DNA of 64,000 bases, taken from assembly GCA_030765605.1 (NCBI GenBank), contig JAVCCG010000133.1, forward strand, positions 12,086 to 76,085, given 5' to 3'. Made by a program: the position numbers and the translations under genes. Of this stretch, positions 198 to 53,587 are shown one piece after another. A model generated the notes under the pieces. It did no database searches. It was not told where the DNA came from and saw nothing but the letters and a program-made list of their open reading frames with translations. This DNA comes from Candidatus Alcyoniella australis (lineage in GTDB: Bacteria > Lernaellota > Lernaellaia > JAVCCG01 > Alcyoniellaceae). Position 1 is the first letter of the stretch; each line of letters starts with the position of its first letter.

Positions 198-932
198 TCA
201 TATTTTACCCCCGTAGGCCAAACCATCTGGATTGGGCGTAGGGGAAACCAGCGTCATTTTTGCCGGATCAAAACAGCCGCTCGCTGCAGTCCCATCAAAC
301 GCTCCCACCAACCGTTGCTGCATGTCTAAGTCGCCGTTGAAAACGGTCATCCATACGCTGAAAAAACCGCTTGCTTCAGCAAGCTCAACAGCAATTGTAC
401 GAAGACTCTGATTTGCGGGATCGTCATCGATGAGCCGCTTAGCTTCTTGGGCTTTCAAGAAGGCTTCCATACGCTGGTCATAGCGGTCGATGGCTACCGC
501 TCTGCCGTTTTCATCTGTAATAAGCGGACCCTGCTTGTCCAAGCCGACAAGTTTGAGGGTGTTCGCGGCGGCGGAGCTGACAGCGGAATTCAGTCCGTTG
601 CGAACCACAACCGTGCCATCCTGGCGATAGCAGTAAGCTGCAAAGGTATTATCACGGTCAGGCAACAACACTTCGGACAAGACGACATCCTTATCTCTCT
701 TGGTCGAGTTGCAGTTGACGCAAGCCAGCAGGAAGTTGTCCCATCTTCCACTAAGGTGAGCATATTTTGGGAGACCCTTGGGCTGGATGTGTTCAACCGC
801 GAGTTGCGTCGCTATCCGGCGTTCGCAATAGCTGCAGTAGCTCCCCAATCGACTGATCAGATACGGCTGAGCCGCTGCATAATCCTTGAAGTCTTTGTTC
901 TGTGGTGATGCATTGCGTCGTATCGGCCGCAT
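198..932 (-). CDS. HNH endonuclease, Septu PtuB-like (TIGR02646-type HNH partner of AAA_15/21 ATPases)
   Basis: 244 aa; CxxC ... H-I-Q-P ... N ... CVNCN..K HNH signature; 4-nt overlap with upstream ATPase gene. Confidence 0.6.
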   Translation of the reverse strand: MRPIRRNASPQNKDFKDYAAAQPYLISRLGSYCSYCERRIATQLAVEHIQPKGLPKYAHLSGRWDNFLLACVNCNSTKRDKDVVLSEVLLPDRDNTFAAYCYRQDGTVVVRNGLNSAVSSAAANTLKLVGLDKQGPLITDENGRAVAIDRYDQRMEAFLKAQEAKRLIDDDPANQSLRTIAVELAEASGFFSVWMTVFNGDLDMQQRLVGAFDGTAASGCFDPAKMTLVSPTPNPDGLAYGGKI

Positions 933-935
933 CGT

Positions 936-2240
936 TTACTCACCAAGCTTGGCTGCGCGTTTCATCTCGAGGAACGCCTGAAACGCGGGGTTGTCGGCAT
1001 ACGGGGCAATCGAATCGGCGAGACGCTTTTGGTATTCCTCCAGCTTTTCTTCCGGGGCCATTTGGGCTTCTTCGAGTGTTTCGAGGTAGGTCCGAGCCAC
1101 CTGTTTCATTTCTTGGTATCGCGCACTTACCTGCGGGTTCGAGACTCCCTGTATGCCGCGAGCGATGTCTTCGAGTGGCAGATCTCCAAGATTAGCTGTC
1201 GGTTGTCCTTCGAGCATGATCAGCTCTTCACCAGATCGAAGCGCCTGGATAAGAAACGGAGAGTGTGTTGTACAGATGAACTGAAGTTTGGGGAACGTCG
1301 TCCGCAGATCCTCGATGACCTGTCGTTGCCATTTGGGGTGCAGGTGCAGATCGAGTTCATCGATCATCACGACCCCGGAGGTCTCCAACAGCACGCGATC
1401 CCCGAGGTGCGGGTTGAGCGTTGCGGCCTTGCGCGCCAAGTCCCCCACCACTGCAAGCATACAGCGTTGACCGTCGCTGAGATTGTTAAAGGGTTGTCTT
1501 GTGCCATTTTCGAACTCGACGATGACCTCGCCGTACTCGGCATCAAAGTAGACATCTTTTGCACCCTGGACGTTTTGCACCAACGCCGAGCGTGCCGTAG
1601 CAAACACCGGCGTCTGAAAGCCGCGTTGCTGAAACGCCTTCCAGGACTGACGGGCGATCCACTCGATGAGATCGGAGACCGACAGGCGGGGATCAACGCT
1701 ATTACGATACGCGTCTAGCCGGGACAACCCGGCCTTTTCCTTGATTTTCTTACTGCTCTTGACTCGCGCTTGCTCGCGGGGAACGTCCCAAAGCCGAGCC
1801 GTGCTGTAATAGGAGATGATGGGTAGGGAAATCGGCTCGCCAGCCCGGACTTTTTCGTCACTCTCCGATGCCAAGTCTTTAATGGAACGGGCGTCTCCGT
1901 AGCTCGTTCGTCCACCTGTATAGTTAAGAGAACGCTTCCACGTCAGGTCATTTCCCAGAATTCTACCGTGCGCCTCCACGATGCACGGGTATTGGTGCTC
2001 CCAGTTGACGCCATCAGCAGTGATAAACCCTTCCAGCCGGGCCTCTCCCGCCTTAATATGGCGAGTGTCGTAGCCGCGTAAGCCGAGAAACCAGCTTCCC
2101 GCAGCAATCGACAGCGCTTCCAGCACCGAGGTTTTCCCTAGCCCGTTGTCGCCAACGACCAAGTTGAACTCGGGATGAAACGATAACTCCCGGTGCTTGA
2201 ATCCCTTAAAATTATTTATTACGAGACGGTCAATGCGCAT
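936..2240 (-). CDS. ABC/OLD-type AAA_15/AAA_21 ATPase, Septu PtuA-like
   Basis: 434 aa; N-terminal Walker A 'VVGDNGLGKTSVLEAL', C-terminal 'MIDELDLHLHP' Walker B/D-loop and 'TTHSPFL' motif typical of AAA_21; immediately upstream of HNH gene; AT-richer promoter region 2241-2413. Confidence 0.6.
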   Translation of the reverse strand: MRIDRLVINNFKGFKHRELSFHPEFNLVVGDNGLGKTSVLEALSIAAGSWFLGLRGYDTRHIKAGEARLEGFITADGVNWEHQYPCIVEAHGRILGNDLTWKRSLNYTGGRTSYGDARSIKDLASESDEKVRAGEPISLPIISYYSTARLWDVPREQARVKSSKKIKEKAGLSRLDAYRNSVDPRLSVSDLIEWIARQSWKAFQQRGFQTPVFATARSALVQNVQGAKDVYFDAEYGEVIVEFENGTRQPFNNLSDGQRCMLAVVGDLARKAATLNPHLGDRVLLETSGVVMIDELDLHLHPKWQRQVIEDLRTTFPKLQFICTTHSPFLIQALRSGEELIMLEGQPTANLGDLPLEDIARGIQGVSNPQVSARYQEMKQVARTYLETLEEAQMAPEEKLEEYQKRLADSIAPYADNPAFQAFLEMKRAAKLGE

Positions 2241-11936: not shown

Positions 11937-13007
11937 TTGTGCGGCTTGGGCCCAATGGATTACTATGACCGGGATTTGAGGATGGGACGTTTTCGCACGC
12001 TGTTGTTCGCGCTGGTCGCGGTGTTGCTGTTTTTCGCGGCGGTGGAGGGACTGCTGCGCCTCAGCGGCTGGGCCCGTTCGCCCTTGGACGAGGTCTACTC
12101 GGACATCTACGACGTGGAATACGTGATGAGTCCGGGCAGCCCCAATCCTTACAACGAACACAAGCCCGAAAAGCTCAATATCGTGGGCTTGCGCGGCGAG
12201 ACCTTCCCCATTGAGCGCGAGCCGGGCGTGCTGCGCGTAATCTGTCTGGGCGACTCGACCACCTTTGGCATGGGCGAGCTCGAGGAATGCTATCCGTACA
12301 TGCTGCAAGAGCAGCTTGAGCAGCATCTGGGCTCGAACAAGGCGCAGGTGCTCAACGCCGGGATTCCCGGGACCGGGTTCACCCAACAGTTGTTGTTTTT
12401 TCAACGCCGGATGCGGCCCTATCGGCCCGACGTTGTTGCTCTGACCGGTGGGCCAAATTACCGTCCTGATATCAAGCAGTACCGTGATAGATTGAAGTCG
12501 GAACGCTTCCAGCGGCTGTACTCGATGCGCGGATGGTTTTCGCGGTTCGACACATACCGTTTGTTACGGCGGTTGGTCAAGGGTCCGGCCGTGCGGTTCG
12601 CCATGGACGACTCGCAGATCGATCCGGCGACCATCGAGACCGGCAGCTATCTGATGGATTATTGGGAAGATTTAGCGCACATGCGCGAACTGTCGCAGCA
12701 GGACGGCTTTAAATTGGTGTTTCTCAACGTGCCGCACCTCGAGTTGATTCAGGAGATGCAGAGCAGGGGGGTCCAGCCGGGGACCGAGCAGTACCGTGAA
12801 GTGTTGTGGATGTTCACGCCGGACCACGTAACCCCCCGATTTGCAGAGAAATACGGCTGTCAGTTTGTGGATTCGGTTCCGGAATTTTTGTTGATTAAGG
12901 CCGACGAAACACTGTTTTTCGATCCCAATCACCCCGCGGCCAAGGGCAACCGGATTATCGCCCGCGCCGTGGCCCAAGGGATTTTACAGGCCATCGCCCA
13001 GCCTTAA
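11937..13007 (+). CDS. SGNH/GDSL-family hydrolase (esterase/lipase-like), membrane-anchored
   Basis: 'VICLGDSTTFG' GDS(L) block I, 'FDPNHP' DxxH block V; N-terminal TM; start may be Met16 (11982). Confidence 0.65.
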   Translation: MCGLGPMDYYDRDLRMGRFRTLLFALVAVLLFFAAVEGLLRLSGWARSPLDEVYSDIYDVEYVMSPGSPNPYNEHKPEKLNIVGLRGETFPIEREPGVLRVICLGDSTTFGMGELEECYPYMLQEQLEQHLGSNKAQVLNAGIPGTGFTQQLLFFQRRMRPYRPDVVALTGGPNYRPDIKQYRDRLKSERFQRLYSMRGWFSRFDTYRLLRRLVKGPAVRFAMDDSQIDPATIETGSYLMDYWEDLAHMRELSQQDGFKLVFLNVPHLELIQEMQSRGVQPGTEQYREVLWMFTPDHVTPRFAEKYGCQFVDSVPEFLLIKADETLFFDPNHPAAKGNRIIARAVAQGILQAIAQP

Positions 13008-13066
13008 CCCGTTGGGCGAAAAGTAAAGATCGATTTCTCGATCTTTCCACCCCCTCTTAATCCGAT

Positions 13067-13082
13067 TGTTCCACGTGGAACA
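13067..13082. other. parS-like ParB-binding centromere site 1 (TGTTCCACGTGGAACA)
   Basis: Perfect 16-bp palindrome, 15/16 to B. subtilis parS TGTTCCACGTGAAACA and 14/16 to generic tGTTTCACGTGAAACa; in AT-rich convergent intergenic region. Confidence 0.7.
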
Positions 13083-13166
13083 ACTGTGGAAAAGATGTTG
13101 CGCACAGGTATTCACACAATGTGGATAGATTCTATAACTAGATGATTAATAAGGGGAAAGTCGCTG

Positions 13167-13182
13167 TGTTCCACGTGGAACA
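13167..13182. other. parS-like ParB-binding centromere site 2 (TGTTCCACGTGGAACA)
   Basis: Identical 16-bp palindrome exactly 100 bp from site 1; both embedded in a 24-bp direct repeat ttgttccacgtggaacaactgtgga. Confidence 0.7.
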
Positions 13183-13221
13183 ACTGTGGATGGAGCTGTG
13201 GGTAGTCAATCAACAGTCCGC

Positions 13222-14268
13222 TTAGCACTTCATCGGGCAGCGGCCGATCTTCTCGCGGGTGATCAGGCCCGCTAGACGACCTTGATCGATAACCGGCAGG
13301 GCGAAGAGGTTGCTGTTGCGCATCCGCCGCAGCACATCCACCAGCGGCTCGGCCGGGCTCGCCGGCTGGGGAATCTGGCGCACGATGTCGCTTACTCGCA
13401 CGTCGAACTCCTCGCGCTTGAGCGCGGGAATCAGGTCGACCCGCGAGACCATGCCCACCAGGCGTCCCTGGTCGATTACCGGCACGTCCTCCTGCATCGT
13501 GTGGCGCAGGCTCGAGGACAGGGAGCCCAGGGTTTCCTCGGGAGTGGTCCAATAGACCGGCGCGAGCATTGCGCGCCAGGCGGGGATGTCCTTTAACGTG
13601 CGCTCGAGCTCGGCCTCCTGACGCTCGGCATTGGCCCCGAGGTAAACGAAGACCGCGATCAGCATCAGGAAGAAGTTGCCGCTGAACAGACCGATCACGC
13701 CGAAACCGATGGCAACCACTTGGCCAACCTTGCCCGCCACTTCCGTGCCCCAGGTGTGTCCTTTGGCTGAAGCCAGGATGCCGCGCAGAATGCGGCCACC
13801 GTCCATCGGCAGGGCTGGAACCAGGTTGAATGCTCCGAGAAAACCGTTAATAAACGCCAGGGTGGACAGATAATGGGTCAAGTAGCTCTCGGCGCCCAAC
13901 GTGAAGTACGAGCCTGCGGCGATTCCGCCGAGCAGCAGGGCCAGGCCGAAACTAGTCAGCGGTCCGGCGGCCGCGACCACGATCTCGCCTGAGGGCTTGG
14001 TCGGCATGCGATCGAGTGCAGCCACTCCGCCGATAGGCAGCAAGGTGATGCTGCGGGTGTTGATGTCGTAACGCCGCGCGGTCAGCGCGTGGCCCAATTC
14101 ATGAATCACCACGCCCACGAACACGCCGAGTACGATCAGCAATCCCTCGGGTCCGCCAAATCCGGTGCTGGCCGGGCTCAGCAGTACGAACAGCAGCAGC
14201 AAGAAGAACGTCAGGTGAATTCTTATTGGAATTCCAGATATTTGCATTATCGTGAACGACCACTTCAC
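13222..14268 (-). CDS. Site-2 protease family (M50) zinc metalloprotease with tandem CBS domains
   Basis: HELGH zinc motif in TM helix, 'NLVPALPMDGG' second motif, C-terminal 2x CBS; start may be Met8 (14247). Confidence 0.75.
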   Translation of the reverse strand: MKWSFTIMQISGIPIRIHLTFFLLLLFVLLSPASTGFGGPEGLLIVLGVFVGVVIHELGHALTARRYDINTRSITLLPIGGVAALDRMPTKPSGEIVVAAAGPLTSFGLALLLGGIAAGSYFTLGAESYLTHYLSTLAFINGFLGAFNLVPALPMDGGRILRGILASAKGHTWGTEVAGKVGQVVAIGFGVIGLFSGNFFLMLIAVFVYLGANAERQEAELERTLKDIPAWRAMLAPVYWTTPEETLGSLSSSLRHTMQEDVPVIDQGRLVGMVSRVDLIPALKREEFDVRVSDIVRQIPQPASPAEPLVDVLRRMRNSNLFALPVIDQGRLAGLITREKIGRCPMKC

Positions 14269-14443: not shown

Positions 14444-15646
14444 TTGGACGTGTTGGGAAACAAACCCTCCAGACGCCGTTTTTTACGCATGTGCAGCTAC
14501 AGCGCACTGGCCGTGTCGCTGACGGGCTGCAACGATCAAGATGAGAGCTCAAGCGCGCGCGGCGGGGGAGACGACGACGATTCACCCTATCAAGCGGATC
14601 AGGCTGGCATTGGCAGAAGCTTCGACGCCGACTGCCCGAACGTAACGCTCCGGCTAGAGGATGGACGGATCTCGCACTGCGGATTCAACCCATACGACCT
14701 CAACGGCGACGGGCCGTTTATCACGGATTGCCCACAAGATTATTTTGATTTCTGCAATCTGGCCGGGGATTACGCGCAACCGTGCAAGGCTGAGGACATC
14801 GCGGATTTGCTGCAGCGCATCGCCACGGGCGAGGTGGACCCGTCCGACCCGCTGGACACTAACGAGTTGCAGCATGAGCTTTGCACGCGGCTCAACATCG
14901 AGTTTTTACTGGACAATTTCGACTCGCGGCCGTTGACCGTGACCACCACCAGGGTCGAGCGCTATGCTGACTATGAGCTGCGCTCGTTGTTGTTCGAGGA
15001 CGAGTTCGTCGGCGAGTTCAACGGTTTCCTGCTGCTGCCCAATGATGCGTGCAACGTACCGGCGGTGGTCGTCTCTCCCGGACACGCCGGCAGTTCCAAA
15101 GCCTGGATCGATGTCTATTTCGGCAATTATTTGCCGCAAAACGGCTATGCCTTGTTGGCGCTTTCCATGCGCTGTATGGCTGCGCCCAATGTGCCGGCAG
15201 AATACGATGTGACCCGTGCCCTGACCCTCGATGGCTTCACGTTTATCGGACTGCAGGTCTATGAACAGTTGCTGGGATTGAAGTACCTGCGCTTCCTGGG
15301 TTGCCGCGATGTCGCTGTCGACGGCAACCGCCTGGGACTGATCGGCCACTCGGGCGGCAGTACTGTCGGCAACTTGCTGATTCGTGCAGCGCCGGAGGCG
15401 GTAAAGGTTTATATCTCTGATTTTAAAAGTGAATATATCAACAGCGGTGAGAGCTGGAATCTCGGTAAAGTACCCCATGACTTTGCGCCTGGGGCCTGGC
15501 AGCTACACTATCTGATCAACAATTTTGATACCGCGACCATGCCTGTGCTCGAGCTGCCCTACGGCTATGCCGAGGATGGACAGTCAATACCCGATGGCAC
15601 GCGGCGGATAATCGAGTTTTTGGATCAGGAGTTGAAAAAGCGATAG
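14444..15646 (+). CDS. Tat-exported lipoprotein alpha/beta-hydrolase (esterase/lipase-like) with short poly-Asp linker
   Basis: SRRRFLRM twin-arginine motif + LTGC lipobox, then GGGDDDD; 'GHSGGS' nucleophile elbow; AT-rich promoter region upstream. Confidence 0.6.
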   Translation: MDVLGNKPSRRRFLRMCSYSALAVSLTGCNDQDESSSARGGGDDDDSPYQADQAGIGRSFDADCPNVTLRLEDGRISHCGFNPYDLNGDGPFITDCPQDYFDFCNLAGDYAQPCKAEDIADLLQRIATGEVDPSDPLDTNELQHELCTRLNIEFLLDNFDSRPLTVTTTRVERYADYELRSLLFEDEFVGEFNGFLLLPNDACNVPAVVVSPGHAGSSKAWIDVYFGNYLPQNGYALLALSMRCMAAPNVPAEYDVTRALTLDGFTFIGLQVYEQLLGLKYLRFLGCRDVAVDGNRLGLIGHSGGSTVGNLLIRAAPEAVKVYISDFKSEYINSGESWNLGKVPHDFAPGAWQLHYLINNFDTATMPVLELPYGYAEDGQSIPDGTRRIIEFLDQELKKR

Positions 15647-39092: not shown

Positions 39093-39385
39093 CGTCCGGT
39101 AGATTAATCGTTTGATATCAATCGCTTTCCGTCATCCTGAAACGGAGGCGAAGGATCTACGCGCGCATGGTGAATTTTGTTGTAACCAGGAGAGGGAAAA
39201 TTGAGGGCTCATCCCTACCACTCCGTCTGGAAATCCAATCCGAAAACACGAATGAGATTAAACATGATGGCTTCTAAAGATGGTTTATTTTATAATAATA
39301 TCAGTGTGGGTAGCCACGAATAGAAGACTCGCTGTAAGTAATTTGATTTACCTTATAGGTTAATCAAACTTGACAAAGGCTTCCT

Positions 39386-39727
39386 ATGGAAATAATATAT
39401 AAGTCGAAAAAGCTAGAAAATGCTTTCATGAAAAGGAAACAAGGCGTGCAGGAGTGGGGTGATCAAAACGCAAAGAAACTATTCCTGAGGCATACACAAC
39501 TACAAGCTGCTGACAACCTGGCAATTTTCAGCACATTACCCGCAACTGGCTTCGAACAATTGAGAGGCGACCGAAAAACTCAGTTCGCCTGTTACGGGAA
39601 ACACCCCTTCCGGCTCATTTTCGAAGCAGCCCATGATCCGGTACCTAGACAATCAGATGGTGGTGTGGACTTGGTTTTAGTGACAAGAATCCGAATCATT
39701 GAGGTGGTCGACTATCATGGCGACTGA
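39386..39727 (+). CDS. higB: HigB-like toxin (plasmid-maintenance-system killer family)
   Basis: 113 aa; N-terminal 'IIYKSKKLENAF' and C-terminal '...LRGDRKTQFACYGKHPFRLIFEA...IIEVVDYHGD' resemble the HigB/plasmid-killer family; low-GC (~45 %) context. Confidence 0.6.
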   Translation: MEIIYKSKKLENAFMKRKQGVQEWGDQNAKKLFLRHTQLQAADNLAIFSTLPATGFEQLRGDRKTQFACYGKHPFRLIFEAAHDPVPRQSDGGVDLVLVTRIRIIEVVDYHGD

Positions 39728-40817
39728 ACGACAAAAAAAAGCCAAACCCGACTATGCGATTCCTCCTGGAGAAACGCTGTCTGAAACGCTCCATGCCTTG
39801 GGTATGACCCAGAAGGAATTTGCGATCAGAACGGGGCTTTCGGAAAAACATATAGTGTCCATTCTTCAAGGCAACGCTCCGATAACGCCTGAAACTGCAT
39901 TGAAATTTGAAACGGTTCTGGGAGTTCACGCTAGCTTTTGGAACAACCTTGAGAGAAATTACAGAGACACCCTAGCCCGATTGGAGAAAGAGAAACGACT
40001 TCAGCAGGATATCGCATGGCTCGACAATATTCCTGTTGCCACAATTGTTAAGCATGGATGGATTAAAAAAAACAAAGAAAAATCTATGAAACTTCAAGAG
40101 GTTCTCTCATTTTATGGCGTCTCGTCGCCAAAGGAATGGGATAAGCTTTGGGCAAATGTCCGTTTCGCCGCGAGGCAAAGTAAGGCTTTTGAAACTGACC
40201 CCGGTGCAGTATCCGCATGGATGCGGATTGGTGAGCTTCGTGCGCAAGATATTGCCTGTCAACCATATAACCATGACCGGTTCCGTGAGGTTTTAGGGGA
40301 AGTCCGAGATTTAACTGTAAGAAGTGCAAGAGACTTTCAGCCGAGAATAATCCAATGGTGCGCAGAGGCCGGCGTAGCTGTCGTTTTTGTAAAAGAGCTC
40401 CCGAGAATACGCCTAAATGGTATTACTCGCTGGCTAAACCCCAACAAGGCGTTAATCCAGCTCTGCCTACGTCACAAAAGCAACGCCCAGTTATGGTTTA
40501 CTTTCTTCCACGAGGCCGGGCATATCCTTAAGCATGGGAAAAGAGACCTTTTTTTGGAGAACGATGAATACCAAGATAGTCAAAAAGAAAAGGAGGCAGA
40601 TAAATTTGCCTCCGATTTTTTAATTCCACCTCGTGAATGGGACTCTTTTTTATCCGAACACATCGATTGCTCTTACTCTAGGGATGATATTAAAACGTTC
40701 GCAGCAAGGGTCGGCATTGCACCGGGGATCGTTGTCGGTAGGCTTCAGCACGAGAGGCTTATTCGTTATTCTCATTGCAATGACTTGAAGGTTAAGCTGG
40801 TCTGGAGTTCCAACTAA
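39717..40817 (+). CDS. higA: HigA-like antitoxin: XRE-family HTH fused to ImmA/IrrE (COG2856) HExxH metallopeptidase domain
   Basis: N-terminal 'LGMTQKEFAIRTGLSEKHIVSILQG' HTH_XRE; C-terminal 'WFTFFHEAGHILKH' HExxH of DUF955/COG2856; 11-nt overlap with higB. Confidence 0.7.
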   Translation: MATERQKKAKPDYAIPPGETLSETLHALGMTQKEFAIRTGLSEKHIVSILQGNAPITPETALKFETVLGVHASFWNNLERNYRDTLARLEKEKRLQQDIAWLDNIPVATIVKHGWIKKNKEKSMKLQEVLSFYGVSSPKEWDKLWANVRFAARQSKAFETDPGAVSAWMRIGELRAQDIACQPYNHDRFREVLGEVRDLTVRSARDFQPRIIQWCAEAGVAVVFVKELPRIRLNGITRWLNPNKALIQLCLRHKSNAQLWFTFFHEAGHILKHGKRDLFLENDEYQDSQKEKEADKFASDFLIPPREWDSFLSEHIDCSYSRDDIKTFAARVGIAPGIVVGRLQHERLIRYSHCNDLKVKLVWSSN

Positions 40818-40820
40818 TAA

Positions 40821-41795
40821 TCAAGGCCCTTCCGAGCTTCCGCGGGTTTTATCGGGTTCGGCGGGTTGGGGCAGGCCGGGTTCATAGAGGGTGATGGTCA
40901 GGCCGTCGCGGTCGCGGGCGCCGATCACGTATTTGCGCAGGCGAGGCCAGATTTGGTCCATGGTCTGGTAATAAAGTCGGGTGTAGGCGTTGCGGCGGTC
41001 GGTTCCGACCTCAGCGGCGAGCAGTTTGAAGCGTTCGGCCTCGCCCGTGGCGCGGTTGACGCGTTCTTGCTGGTAGGTCTCGCCCTCGCTACGGGCGCGG
41101 TTGGCCTCGGCGCGGGCCCGGGGCATGGCCTGGTTGGCGTAGCCGTCGGCCTCGTTGATCAGGCGACTGCGGTCCTCGCGGGCGCTGGAGACCTCGTTGA
41201 ACGAGGCGGCCACCCCGCGCGGGTTGATGATCTGATCGACCTGCATCGAGCTGATGCTCAGGCCGCTGGAATAGGCGTCCATGTCGGCCTGGATGTCGCG
41301 CATCACCTCGGCGGCGATGATCGACTTATCGGTGGTCAGGGCGTCGTCTACGGCCATGGCGGCCAGTCGGCGCGTGACCGCGGCCTCGCCGCTGATGCGC
41401 ACCAGCTCGTGGGGATCAAAGGTGTTGAGCAGGAACGCAGCCGGGTCGTTGATCGTGTAGCGCACCACGAGCATCACCACGATCCAGTTGCGGTCGCCGG
41501 TGAGGAACTGGCGTTGGAATACGCCCGCGATGTCCGAGACTTGTTCCTGGCCGACCTCGAAGCCGATGCCGCGCTGTTTGAGGTCGGTGACGTTGGGCCG
41601 GTCCACGCGCTCAACGGGCCAGGGCAGGTGGTAGTGGATGCCCGGCGGCACGCGGTTTTCGGTCACCGCGCCGAAGCGCCGCACCACGCCCTGCTGGTTG
41701 TAATCCACGATGTACAGGCCCGAGGCCAGGTAGATCAGCAGCAGCGCGGCCGCGCATAGCAGCGAGAGCAGGCGTAGCCGGCGGCTTTGGGCCAC
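40821..41795 (-). CDS. SPFH/band-7 domain protein (HflK/HflC-like paralogue)
   Basis: N-terminal TM, SPFH domain, C-terminal coiled coil. Confidence 0.7.
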   Translation of the reverse strand: MAQSRRLRLLSLLCAAALLLIYLASGLYIVDYNQQGVVRRFGAVTENRVPPGIHYHLPWPVERVDRPNVTDLKQRGIGFEVGQEQVSDIAGVFQRQFLTGDRNWIVVMLVVRYTINDPAAFLLNTFDPHELVRISGEAAVTRRLAAMAVDDALTTDKSIIAAEVMRDIQADMDAYSSGLSISSMQVDQIINPRGVAASFNEVSSAREDRSRLINEADGYANQAMPRARAEANRARSEGETYQQERVNRATGEAERFKLLAAEVGTDRRNAYTRLYYQTMDQIWPRLRKYVIGARDRDGLTITLYEPGLPQPAEPDKTRGSSEGP

Positions 41796-41796
41796 G

Positions 41797-42741
41797 TTAG
41801 TCGACCTTTCCCGAGACCAGTAGCTTGAGCACCTCGGCGTCGGAATCGAGCACTATCACGGTCTGTTCGTCGAGGAACTTGCGGTAGCTCTCCAGGGTGC
41901 GCGTCAGCTTGTACAGTTCGGGGTCCGAGCTGTAGGCCTCGGCGTAAATCCGGGCCGCAACCGCGTCGCCCTCGCCCTTGGTCTGCTCGGCGTCGCGATA
42001 GGCCTCGGTGAGAATCCGGCTGACCTCTTTGTCGGTCTCGGCCTTGATCTTCTCGGCCTCCTCTTCGCCCTCGGCGCGGTACTTTTTGGCAATGCGCTGG
42101 CGCTCGGAGCGCATCCGGCGGTAGACCGAGGCGCGCGTGCCCTCGGGGAAGCCGAAGCGCCGCAGGCCGACGTCGACGACCTCCACCCCCAGCTCCTCGC
42201 GGGCCGCGGATCGGCAGCGCTCGGTTGCGACCTGCATGATCTGCTCGATCTGCACGCCGTCGGGCTCAACCGAGAGCAGGACGGAGAGCTCTGACTTGCC
42301 CAGCACGTCGCTGACCTCGCTGAGCAGCATCGAGCTTAAGCGCACCTCGGCCGTGCGCCGGTCCTTGACCGTGCGGATGAACAGTCGCGGATCGGCGATG
42401 CGCCAGCAGGCGTAGGCCTCGTAGACCAGCGGTTTTTTATCTTGGGTCAGCACCTCGGCCGGCCGCGCGTCGAGCACCATCAGCCGCGCGTCAAAGCGGT
42501 GCACCGACTGGATCGGGTCGGGCCACTTGAAGTACAGCCCGGGCTTGTCCAGCACGCGCACCGGGTCGCCCAGGAACGTCAGCAGCCCCAGCTCGGACTG
42601 GTCGATGGTGAACAGCATGTTGTTCAACAGCAGGAAGCAGATGATCAGCAGGCCGACCACGATCAGCCAGGTCCGGGCAGCCCCCGCGGTCGCCGCTGCC
42701 GGGCCGGGGTCGGGCCCGCTGTTTGTCGCATCGTGGCTCAT
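41797..42741 (-). CDS. SPFH/band-7 protein, HflC-like
   Basis: TM + SPFH + charged coiled-coil (RAEGEEEAEKIKAETDKE...) typical of HflC. Confidence 0.7.
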   Translation of the reverse strand: MSHDATNSGPDPGPAAATAGAARTWLIVVGLLIICFLLLNNMLFTIDQSELGLLTFLGDPVRVLDKPGLYFKWPDPIQSVHRFDARLMVLDARPAEVLTQDKKPLVYEAYACWRIADPRLFIRTVKDRRTAEVRLSSMLLSEVSDVLGKSELSVLLSVEPDGVQIEQIMQVATERCRSAAREELGVEVVDVGLRRFGFPEGTRASVYRRMRSERQRIAKKYRAEGEEEAEKIKAETDKEVSRILTEAYRDAEQTKGEGDAVAARIYAEAYSSDPELYKLTRTLESYRKFLDEQTVIVLDSDAEVLKLLVSGKVD

Positions 42742-44453
42742 CGTGTCCTCCTCTGGCCATCGGGCTCGGTCATGCGCAAATCGATTGCACCGGGGCTTAG
42801 GTGCGAGGGCACGATCACCTTGCGCCGCCCGGCCAGTGCCGCCTCAAGGGTCTCGAGGGTCAGTCGGTATTCGTGCAGCCGCCGCTGTCCGCGGATCGCC
42901 GCGGCAAGTTGGGTGAAGCGCGAGGCCTCGCCCCCAGCGCGCATGGTCGTGCTGGCGCGGTAGCCCTCGGAGTCGAACAGGATGCGCACCGCATCGCCGC
43001 GGGCGCGGGCGATTTTCTCGTTGTTGTAGCCCTGGGCGTCGTTGATCGCTTTCTCTTTGTCCTCGAGGGCCGAGTAGACTTCGCGGAAGTCCTCGACCAC
43101 CTGCACCGGCGGATGCACGTCCTGCAAATAGACCGCGAGGATCGACAGGCCGGTGCCCATGGCCGTCAGACGGCATTGGGCGCGCGCGGCCACGGCCTGC
43201 TCCACGTCGCGGCGTTCCCAGATCAGCGCCTGCTCGAAGTTGAGTCCGGCGACCTCGCCGTGCAGCGCCGACTCCACTGCCGCGGTCACCATCCGCTCGA
43301 TGTCGGCCACTCCCAGCAGCGCCGCCGCCGGGTCGGAGAGGCTGTACTGCACCACGAGGTTGACGTCGAGCATGTTCTCGTCGCCGGTGAGCACCAGCGC
43401 CTCGTCGATCTTCTTTTGGTAGACCCCTGCGGTGTGCAGGCTATCCCACTCGTAGTTCGAGCGCAGGCGTACCGTGCTTACCGGACCCTGGGGCAGGCTG
43501 CGGAAGCCGACCTCGAGTTGGCGTACCCGTTGCGGCTCCACGGTGATCACGCGCTCAATGGGCGCCGGGGCCAGCCAGTGCAGTCCGGGCTGTAGCGGCT
43601 GGCCTTGCAGGCCGCCCCAGCGCAGCCGCAGGCCGACCTGGTCCGGGCCGACCATGGTCAGTCCGCTGAGCACCCACAGCACGAGCACCAGTAGCGCCGT
43701 GCAGGCCAGCAGCCCGCGCCGACGGACGGCCACCCGTTCCCAGAGGCGTTCGCCGACCAGCTTGCGGCCGACCAGCCCCAGGAAGCCGTAACGCCGATGC
43801 TGCTCAGCCCCGTGTTTGGAGCGGGTCAGCAGGCCCAGCAGCGCACCGATTCCCACGTCAAGGCCGATGCCCGCGACCAACACCACGATCAGCGCGGCCA
43901 CCGGCCGATCGAGCCGCAGTCCGATCACCTGGCCCATCAGCGCTAAAATCACGGCCAGCGAGGTCATTACGTCCATGCTGGTATGGCGGCTGTCCGCGGT
44001 CAGCGAGGGCGAGCCGGTCTCGCGTCCGGCGCGCGCCTGATAGCGCGCCAAGCCCCAGTTGATCAGCGCGAAGCAAAAGGTGGCCACAATCGCTGCGGGC
44101 AGCCATTCGCCGCGCACTTGCAGCGAGGGGCGGCCGATCATCAGGCCGATGCGCAGGGCCGCGCCGAGAATCATCAGCGAGATCAGCAGCGCCACCAGGT
44201 TTTCGATCAGCACCGCTTGGCTTGGACGACGCTCGCCCAGCCGTACGCCGACCAGCACCATTGCCGAGACCACCATGTCCGAGAGGCTGTGCAGCGCGTC
44301 GGCGACCATCGCCATGCTGCCCACCAGCAGGCCAAAAAGCGCCTCGCCAAGCACCAGCAGCAAGTTCACCGCGATGCTCACCTTGGCCACGCGGGCGCGG
44401 CGCGGCGCATCCGTAGTCTGTGGCTGCTGTTGCGTCGGGTGGCTCGTTGACAT
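42738..44453 (-). CDS. Fusion protein: cation-diffusion-facilitator (CDF) transmembrane domain + HflK-like SPFH domain
   Basis: N-terminal 6-TM region with CDF TM2 motif 'GSMAMVADALHSLSD' and TM5 'RHTSMD'; then extra TM and SPFH domain ('VGPDQVGLRLRWGG...'); 571 aa. Confidence 0.65.
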   Translation of the reverse strand: MSTSHPTQQQPQTTDAPRRARVAKVSIAVNLLLVLGEALFGLLVGSMAMVADALHSLSDMVVSAMVLVGVRLGERRPSQAVLIENLVALLISLMILGAALRIGLMIGRPSLQVRGEWLPAAIVATFCFALINWGLARYQARAGRETGSPSLTADSRHTSMDVMTSLAVILALMGQVIGLRLDRPVAALIVVLVAGIGLDVGIGALLGLLTRSKHGAEQHRRYGFLGLVGRKLVGERLWERVAVRRRGLLACTALLVLVLWVLSGLTMVGPDQVGLRLRWGGLQGQPLQPGLHWLAPAPIERVITVEPQRVRQLEVGFRSLPQGPVSTVRLRSNYEWDSLHTAGVYQKKIDEALVLTGDENMLDVNLVVQYSLSDPAAALLGVADIERMVTAAVESALHGEVAGLNFEQALIWERRDVEQAVAARAQCRLTAMGTGLSILAVYLQDVHPPVQVVEDFREVYSALEDKEKAINDAQGYNNEKIARARGDAVRILFDSEGYRASTTMRAGGEASRFTQLAAAIRGQRRLHEYRLTLETLEAALAGRRKVIVPSHLSPGAIDLRMTEPDGQRRTR

Positions 44454-52861: not shown

Positions 52862-53587
52862 CTAGCGGCGCAGATTCGAAAGCGGTTCCCATTGGCCGTT
52901 GGCTGTCCGGTATTTCCAGAGGTTCCAACCGTTCACATTGCGGCGGCAGACAGCCCGCCCTGCGCCCGAGGGGGTGTTGTAGAGTGCTCCGTTGAACTGG
53001 ATTCTTCCGCTGTACAACACATGTGCCTTGTACTCTTTTCCCTTGTACGTGGCCTTGATCGTCTTGCCAGATAACAGCCCTTTGAGAACAGGCTTGGCGC
53101 TCTTTGCTTTTATCCTGGAAGTTGCTCCCTTTTTCCCCTTGCCCTTGGGATTTTGCGCGTTGGATCGTTTGTTGCCAAAAATGATATCTTCTTCTCGGCG
53201 TTTGACCTCCTGGTATCTGCTCTTCAAAACCTTTTTCAGATCCTCCGAGTTTTTCAACTTGCCCAAGGAAATATTTGCTTTGGGGTTGGCAATGCGCAAC
53301 ACGAAGGTTTCAAGCTCTCTCATATGCTCGGACTTGCGGGTGATATAGAGACTGAAGTGATCCCATTTCCCTGCCAGCTTATCTCGCTGGTGTTGCTTAA
53401 GGCGTTTTTTAAGGTCGCGGGCCAGGCCGACGTAGACCAGTCGGTGGTTCTTTCCTTTATATAGGGCATATATCCCATGTTGTTCGCCGATCAACTCTGC
53501 GATTAACTCAGGGTATTTCTGGAAGACGGTGCTGGTAATCAGCTCGAGGTGCCCGGTAATAAGCGTCTGCGAGAAAAAGCTGAGCAT
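52862..53587 (-). CDS. GIY-YIG nuclease-domain protein with basic linker and uncharacterised C-terminal domain, in low-GC islet
   Basis: 'GIYALYKGKNHRLVYVGLARDLKKRLKQH' GIY-YIG motif; KGKGKKG linker; C-terminal 'W..W.YRTANGQWEPLSNLR'; ~47 % GC vs ~65 % flanks. Confidence 0.6.
   Translation of the reverse strand: MLSFFSQTLITGHLELITSTVFQKYPELIAELIGEQHGIYALYKGKNHRLVYVGLARDLKKRLKQHQRDKLAGKWDHFSLYITRKSEHMRELETFVLRIANPKANISLGKLKNSEDLKKVLKSRYQEVKRREEDIIFGNKRSNAQNPKGKGKKGATSRIKAKSAKPVLKGLLSGKTIKATYKGKEYKAHVLYSGRIQFNGALYNTPSGAGRAVCRRNVNGWNLWKYRTANGQWEPLSNLRR

Follow-up and report, generated by a model that had tools for sequence, protein, structure and literature searches.

The window analysed here is a 64-kb stretch of DNA from Candidatus Alcyoniella australis, an uncultured bacterium of the candidate phylum Lernaellota (formerly FEN-1099) from Ace Lake, Antarctica, whose MAG (IMG 3300035698_1390) is reported to be 98% complete; the M50 and GDSL proteins described below share 100% identity with proteins from a 79-kb contig of this MAG. 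Around 13 kb into the window, the genes of a GDSL/SGNH hydrolase and of an M50 peptidase converge on an intergenic spacer. This spacer contains two identical palindromes, named parS1 and parS2 below, each followed by a short flank with the motif TGTGG, as well as two further TGTGG motifs in the same orientation and a hairpin (Table 1). The contig also carries ftsK, lolA, yajQ, lptFG, alr, mlaED, gpsA and an rnf cluster, and judged from such housekeeping genes the window is clearly chromosomal.

Table 1. Features of the spacer with the putative parS sites, its neighbouring genes and the Septu gene pair, in window positions
Feature	Position	Strand	Remarks
PtuB (HNH)	198-932	-	PADLOC PDLC00315, E = 2e-79
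PtuA (ATPase)	936-2240	-	PADLOC PDLC00278, E = 1e-136
GDSL/SGNH hydrolase gene	11937-13007	+	Left neighbour; 341 aa in the NCBI gene model
Convergent intergenic spacer	13008-13221	.	214 bp; hosts both putative parS sites
Hairpin AAAGATCGA-TTTC-TCGATCTTT	13025-13046	+	9-bp stem, 4-nt loop; just 3' of the GDSL stop codon
parS1 (putative)	13067-13082	.	Exact 16-bp palindrome TGTTCCACGTGGAACA; without counterpart in the sister lineage
parS1 flank ACTGTGGA	13083-13090	+	2-nt spacer and TGTGGA; part of the identical 24-nt repeat
Free-standing box TGTGGATAG	13120-13128	+	8/9 to the DnaA box TGTGGATAA; between the parS sites, in flank orientation
parS2 (putative)	13167-13182	.	Exact 16-bp palindrome TGTTCCACGTGGAACA; copy aligned with the site of the sister lineage
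parS2 flank ACTGTGGA	13183-13190	+	The sister lineage has A-T-TGTGG here
Fourth co-oriented TGTGG (TGTGGGTAG)	13197-13201	+	12 nt past the parS2 flank box
M50 peptidase gene with CBS domains (site-2 protease)	13222-14268	-	Right neighbour

Because the NCBI gene model of the hydrolase is 341 aa long, the gene probably starts at 11982. On the other side, the M50 gene is adjoined by a 400-aa open reading frame (14444-15646, + strand) with a coding-like GC3 of 0.70 and no match in Pfam or PADLOC. The spacer itself is long, since the seven other convergent gene pairs of the window are separated by 76 bp at most, and its length is consistent with DNA retained for a cis-acting site. The first-pass annotation had described it as an AT-rich island of about 200 bp between convergent genes. 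The convergent arrangement stands, but the base composition turned out to be nothing special: the GC content of the spacer is 0.458, falling to 0.28 at 13111-13150, as compared to 0.617 over the whole window, and lies within the normal range of the intergenic DNA of the window (0.38-0.64, median 0.53). Promoter-like sites were not found in the island. Its sole terminator-like structure is the hairpin behind the hydrolase gene, which was missed by the terminator scan because it contains too few G-C pairs.

Exact matches to TGTTCCACGTGGAACA were recovered at the positions of both parS1 and parS2, and both are perfect palindromes, in agreement with the first-pass annotation. Each is held in an identical 24-nt direct repeat, TGTTCCACGTGGAACAACTGTGGA, as had also been reported, with the two repeats starting 100 nt apart, and parS1 widens to an 18-bp palindrome, TTGTTCCACGTGGAACAA (13066-13083). 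Allowing for up to 3 mismatches, no copy of TGTTCCACGTGGAACA beyond these two was found in the 64-kb window. Based on base composition, 9.4e-6 exact 16-mers are expected per window, versus two observed, and a chance agreement of the two copies over the whole 8-nt extension has a probability of 2.4e-5. Within the window, TGTTCCACGTGGAACA is low-copy and non-random, and is not a dispersed repeat. The distance between the copies had been equated with ten helical turns; at 10.5 bp per turn, 100 bp correspond to approximately 9.5 turns, and helical phasing is unnecessary for the CTP-dependent loading of ParB clamps. Other closely spaced parS pairs are 38 bp (L005) and 78 bp (L117) apart.

Both copies match the general parS consensus TGTTNCACGTGNAACA at 16 of 16 positions. 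Moreover, the identical 16-bp perfect palindrome serves as parS in Pseudomonas putida, in P. aeruginosa (parS2 and parS3) and in Bdellovibrio bacteriovorus, where the copies are likewise few and some of them intergenic, and the sites of P. putida and P. aeruginosa have been validated experimentally. In these systems the sites have been mapped near oriC and parAB and the binding of ParB has been demonstrated, whereas those of Alcyoniella are predicted sites; a conserved TGTGG flank has not been reported for them, unlike in Alcyoniella. The consensus of Myxococcus xanthus, TGTTCCACGTGGAACG, is of the same CC/GG variant and matches at 15 of 16 positions, one terminal base being different. Several closely spaced sites form one centromere region there as well, although M. 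xanthus has 22 clustered sites near parAB and the 64 kb studied here contain two. The first-pass annotation was also correct in giving a match of 15/16 to the parS of Bacillus subtilis, TGTTNCACGTGAAACA (Lin and Grossman 1998). The function expected from this resemblance, nucleation of Spo0J/ParB and loading of SMC, would be alike, but most of the B. subtilis sites are located inside genes, whereas both Alcyoniella sites are in a convergent spacer.

This lineage is very sparsely sampled. A sister lineage, with a GDSL ortholog of 61% identity, was available in three independent assemblies (L015, L016 and L017, from ENA, JGI and Logan), and in all three of them the exact 16-mer begins 21 nt past the GDSL stop codon. 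MAFFT paired this site with parS2, and the AT-rich left flank is partly conserved, while the rest of the spacer is unalignable between the window and the sister lineage. The fixation of 16 out of 16 bases in an otherwise unalignable spacer points to selection on a protein-binding site and is a strong argument for function. Over the 464 bp available from the sister lineage, parS occurs once. From this alignment, parS2 is the putative ancestral site, common to the sister lineage, and since the latter has only one site, parS1 is probably a local, lineage-specific duplication of the 24-nt unit.

On the side of the M50 gene, the sister-lineage ortholog (72%) has no parS in the 101 bp downstream of it, at which point its contig ends. 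As this contig lacks parS and does not overlap with the GDSL contigs, the GDSL and M50 genes may not be adjacent in the sister lineage. Neither synteny nor parS was seen in M50 relatives at 45-46% identity (L010-L014) or in a GDSL relative at 47% (L018). In two of the sister-lineage assemblies, a hairpin followed by a T-run is located approximately 250 nt downstream of parS (at about 1578-1612 in L015 and about 1575-1612 in L016). The stems differ between the assemblies and yet stay paired (ggatgcc...ggcatcc versus gggcc...ggccc), which suggests a real terminator, either of an unannotated short transcript or of a long GDSL 3' UTR. The end of the ENA contig (L015, 1735-1778) consists of an Illumina Nextera adapter, CTGTCTCTTATACACATCTCCGAGCCCACGAGAC, a contaminant of the assembly as publicly deposited.

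We consider it very probable that both 16-mers represent true parS sites, belonging to the chromosomal centromere of Ca. Alcyoniella australis. Their proposed identity as ParB-binding sites, put forward in the first-pass annotation, is well supported by the identity to validated parS, by an occurrence beyond chance at low copy number and by the conserved position in the sister lineage, together with the housekeeping context. ParB binding and spreading, SMC loading and the proximity of oriC are what we infer for this locus. If it functions as in the known ParABS pathway, the helix-turn-helix domains of ParB dimers would recognise the individual palindromes; after binding CTP, the dimers would close into clamps that slide onto the DNA on either side. 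The resulting partition complex would build up over several kilobases on each side and would be moved by ParA, and it may also load the SMC condensin, as in many bacteria. In P. aeruginosa one parS site is sufficient; two sites 100 bp apart would raise the ParB loading capacity twofold, whatever their helical phase.

These putative sites extend the canonical parS, with all 16 positions unchanged, to a candidate phylum without any cultured member, which implies a conventional ParABS segregation system in the Lernaellota. Once the genome is closed, the locus would provide an anchor for ordering the contigs of the MAG around the origin. Apart from the flank, it is ordinary, textbook biology.

The A-N-TGTGG flank is the only unusual detail of the locus. 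It follows both parS copies of the window (AC-TGTGGA) and that of the sister lineage (AT-TGTGGGG), and the latter was found without a search selecting for TGTGG. As a background we used 119 distinct sites with exact identity to TGTTCCACGTGGAACA, taken from viral and plasmid-like contigs among the matches listed, which provided 236 flanks. TGTGG was present at the same offset in none of these (0/236), and slight information was detected at positions +1 and +2 only. Read on the - strand, the flank (TTTTCCACA) fits the relaxed DnaA-box consensus TTWTNCACA, and the flank motifs fit the DnaA-box-like pattern yT(A/T)TCCACA. The flank also repeats the GTGG of the adjacent half-site with an 11-bp period. 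Across the window, the hexamer TGTGGA is strand-asymmetric, with 17 occurrences on the + strand versus 4 on the - strand, 3 of the 17 being within the parS island; this asymmetry might reflect a polar motif or codon usage only.

Three known systems offer points of comparison for this flank. At the parS locus of Caulobacter crescentus, DnaA-box-like motifs lie directly beside parS (Mera et al. 2014), as in Alcyoniella; DnaA binding and a role in segregation have been shown experimentally in Caulobacter, whereas the boxes found here are imperfect and the TGTGG core alone is conserved. The half-parS sites bound by ParB in P. aeruginosa (GTTCCAC/GTTTCAC) resemble the flank in its GTGG(A), placed 11 bp from the right half-site, but the Alcyoniella flank is devoid of the GTT/AAC part of the heptamer, and half-parS heptamers outside parS are not enriched in the window (10 found versus approximately 6.9 expected). 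In Bdellovibrio, the short DNA stretches that flank parS control the accumulation of ParB.

A metagenome scan for the 24-mer, in which the right-hand flank was required, returned five contigs. Three of them carry a T/A variant of parS and were rejected as evidence on the flank, which occurs there at chance level, as unselected parS sites on the same contigs are without it. The two others, L006 (2013-2065) and L008 (5626-5671), both from sample Ga0326726, have a box on both sides of parS, inverted and 2 bp outside each end, and thereby form a palindrome of approximately 36 bp, TTTTCCACA-at-parS-ac-TGTGGATAG. L008 belongs to the Terriglobales (Acidobacteriota) and not to the Lernaellota. In L006, parS lies in frame inside a gene for a PfaA-like polyketide/PUFA synthase, and in L008 it lies beside TCA-cycle genes. 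In the syntenic spacer of a related 4.36-Mb Terriglobia genome (L009; aconitase 88% identical), only a degenerate half-site, CGTAGAACATTTG, is kept, an example of how quickly parS sites can be gained and lost.

These observations raise the question whether the functional unit might be a composite of parS, its A-N-TGTGG flank and the remaining TGTGG boxes of the same orientation, the boxes being bound by a second factor, a reading that would add to the identification as parS and would not replace it. The second factor could be DnaA, given the similarity of the boxes to TTATCCACA, for which the Caulobacter locus is a parallel, or a lineage-specific protein that modulates ParB loading, or else an extra ParB subunit that contacts GTGG as a third half-site at a distance of one helical turn. 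In favour of such a unit are the 8-nt extension common to both window copies, the occurrence of TGTGG at the same 2-nt offset in the sister lineage as opposed to its absence from the background flanks among the matches listed, the two-sided boxes of L006 and L008, the presence of four TGTGG motifs in one orientation within the 214-bp island, and the precedents from Caulobacter, P. aeruginosa and Bdellovibrio. However, conservation is limited to the TGTGG core, the sister-lineage sequence TGTGGGGTT sharing 5 of 9 positions with the DnaA box, and DnaA-box matches with no more than 1 mismatch occur at the chance rate over the whole window (6 found versus 5.1 expected). Once the duplicated 24-mer enters the count as a single event, the cluster of boxes is not significant. 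Furthermore, the window sites have the box on one side, and L006 and L008, which come from the search that required the flank, may be copies of one element in the same genome, L008 being moreover from another phylum. On balance we regard the composite unit as unlikely.

A stricter form of this idea holds that the Lernaellota, and convergently some Terriglobales, always require a TGTGG/CCACA box at a distance of exactly 2 bp from the parS palindrome, with more co-oriented boxes in the vicinity, and that a second factor of one of the three kinds named above binds to these boxes; we think this quite unlikely. If it were true, the loading of ParB would be coupled to, or gated by, this binding, in a manner comparable to DnaA in Caulobacter or to the context-dependent accumulation in Bdellovibrio. 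The flank is a minor and possibly functional addition to parS, and a small hint that in some lineages selection can act on the sequence adjacent to parS.

With regard to the position on the chromosome, approximately 90% of parS sites (about 80/87) are situated in the ori domain according to the literature, and from this prior only the sites described here are, a priori, probably origin-proximal, as the first-pass annotation had suggested. None of the genes parA, parB, dnaA, dnaN, mnmE, mnmG and rsmG is present in the 64-kb window, and no ParBc or ParA family match was obtained among its proteins. For comparison, L007 shows a typical origin-side neighbourhood, in which parS adjoins mnmE. The GC skew at third codon positions (GC3) was split into a component due to gene orientation and one due to replication. 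The latter amounts to approximately +0.04 for the + strand, with values of +0.037 on the left and +0.041 on the right side of the island, and GC-skew inversion was observed neither at the island nor elsewhere in the window, the + strand being the leading strand throughout. The equal GC3 skew on both sides indicates that the whole window belongs to a single replichore and that the origin is situated at some point to its left.

The same data bear on the possibility that the island is all or part of a replication origin or of a DnaA-titrating locus (oriC or datA-like) that includes parS by chance. Such a role is suggested by the co-oriented boxes of the island, two of which differ from TTATCCACA at one position and two at two positions, by the 40-bp stretch of 28% GC between boxes, and by a cumulative GC skew that is flat over 1-9 kb and rises thereafter. 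Yet the GC3 skew does not invert once gene orientation is separated, the 64 kb are devoid of dnaA, dnaN and other origin-neighbour genes, and the island contains neither a perfect DnaA box nor a recognisable DnaA-trio array. In addition, the sister lineage retains no more of the boxes than TGTGG, the region of the free-standing box being unalignable, and the AT-rich stretch is short and has a GC content ordinary for the intergenic DNA of this window. Given the skew, the gene content and the non-conservation of the boxes, the origin reading was rejected as highly improbable.

Bidirectional terminators or REP-like extragenic palindromes that merely resemble parS would typically be expected between convergent genes, and each palindrome does fold into an RNA hairpin of 6-7 bp. 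However, neither parS hairpin is followed by a U-tract, the terminator scan was empty in the island, and the fold of the M50-side transcript (z = -0.44) is no better than that of shuffled sequence, while the hydrolase gene already has a separate hairpin behind it. The two copies in 64 kb, none of them degenerate, are also unlike REP families, and a stem would tolerate compensatory changes, whereas a consensus for protein binding is fixed at 16/16 positions across lineages. Both readings were therefore rejected and appear extremely improbable. A known RNA family was rejected as well, as Rfam gave no match at E-values of up to 1 between 12000 and 14500.

Finally, the sites could belong to an integrated mobile element, as the partition site of a plasmid or phage-plasmid, instead of being a centromere of the host chromosome. 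TGTTCCACGTGGAACA is frequent on phage- or plasmid-like sequences, with exact copies on at least 120 IMG/VR contigs (L019-L138), and among the matches listed some of these contigs have it twice, at distances of 78 to 1265 bp. Many mobile elements may exploit the ParB of their host or carry their own, and the sequence by itself is thus no proof of a role as chromosomal centromere. Defence- or mobile-looking islands also occur elsewhere in the window, one with Septu (198-2240) and one with an ImmA/IrrE-like gene (39.7-40.8 kb). Nevertheless, the immediate neighbours of the sites are ordinary cellular genes with a host-like GC3, no partition, integrase or replication genes are nearby, and the site stays beside the same GDSL gene in a lineage with 61% identity, so that an origin in a mobile element can almost certainly be dismissed in favour of chromosomal parS.

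Several other loci of the window were recorded in the course of the analysis. The Septu anti-phage pair is complete, lies on the - strand and is found in a segment of reduced GC content, approximately 0.555. A low-GC island at 39093-40817 (0.43-0.49 versus 0.62) includes a gene-free stretch of 606 bp and a gene with HTH_3 and Peptidase_M78 domains (ImmA/IrrE-like) that matches PD-Lambda-2_B (E = 1e-32); it is probably what is left of a mobile element or a defence element. A segment of 51% GC encodes a GIY-YIG nuclease (52862-53587, - strand) that contains a RAMA domain and weakly matches PADLOC PDC-S14. Three SPFH/Band-7 genes lie in a row at 40821-44453 (- strand), the third of which is fused to a cation-efflux (CDF) transporter domain.
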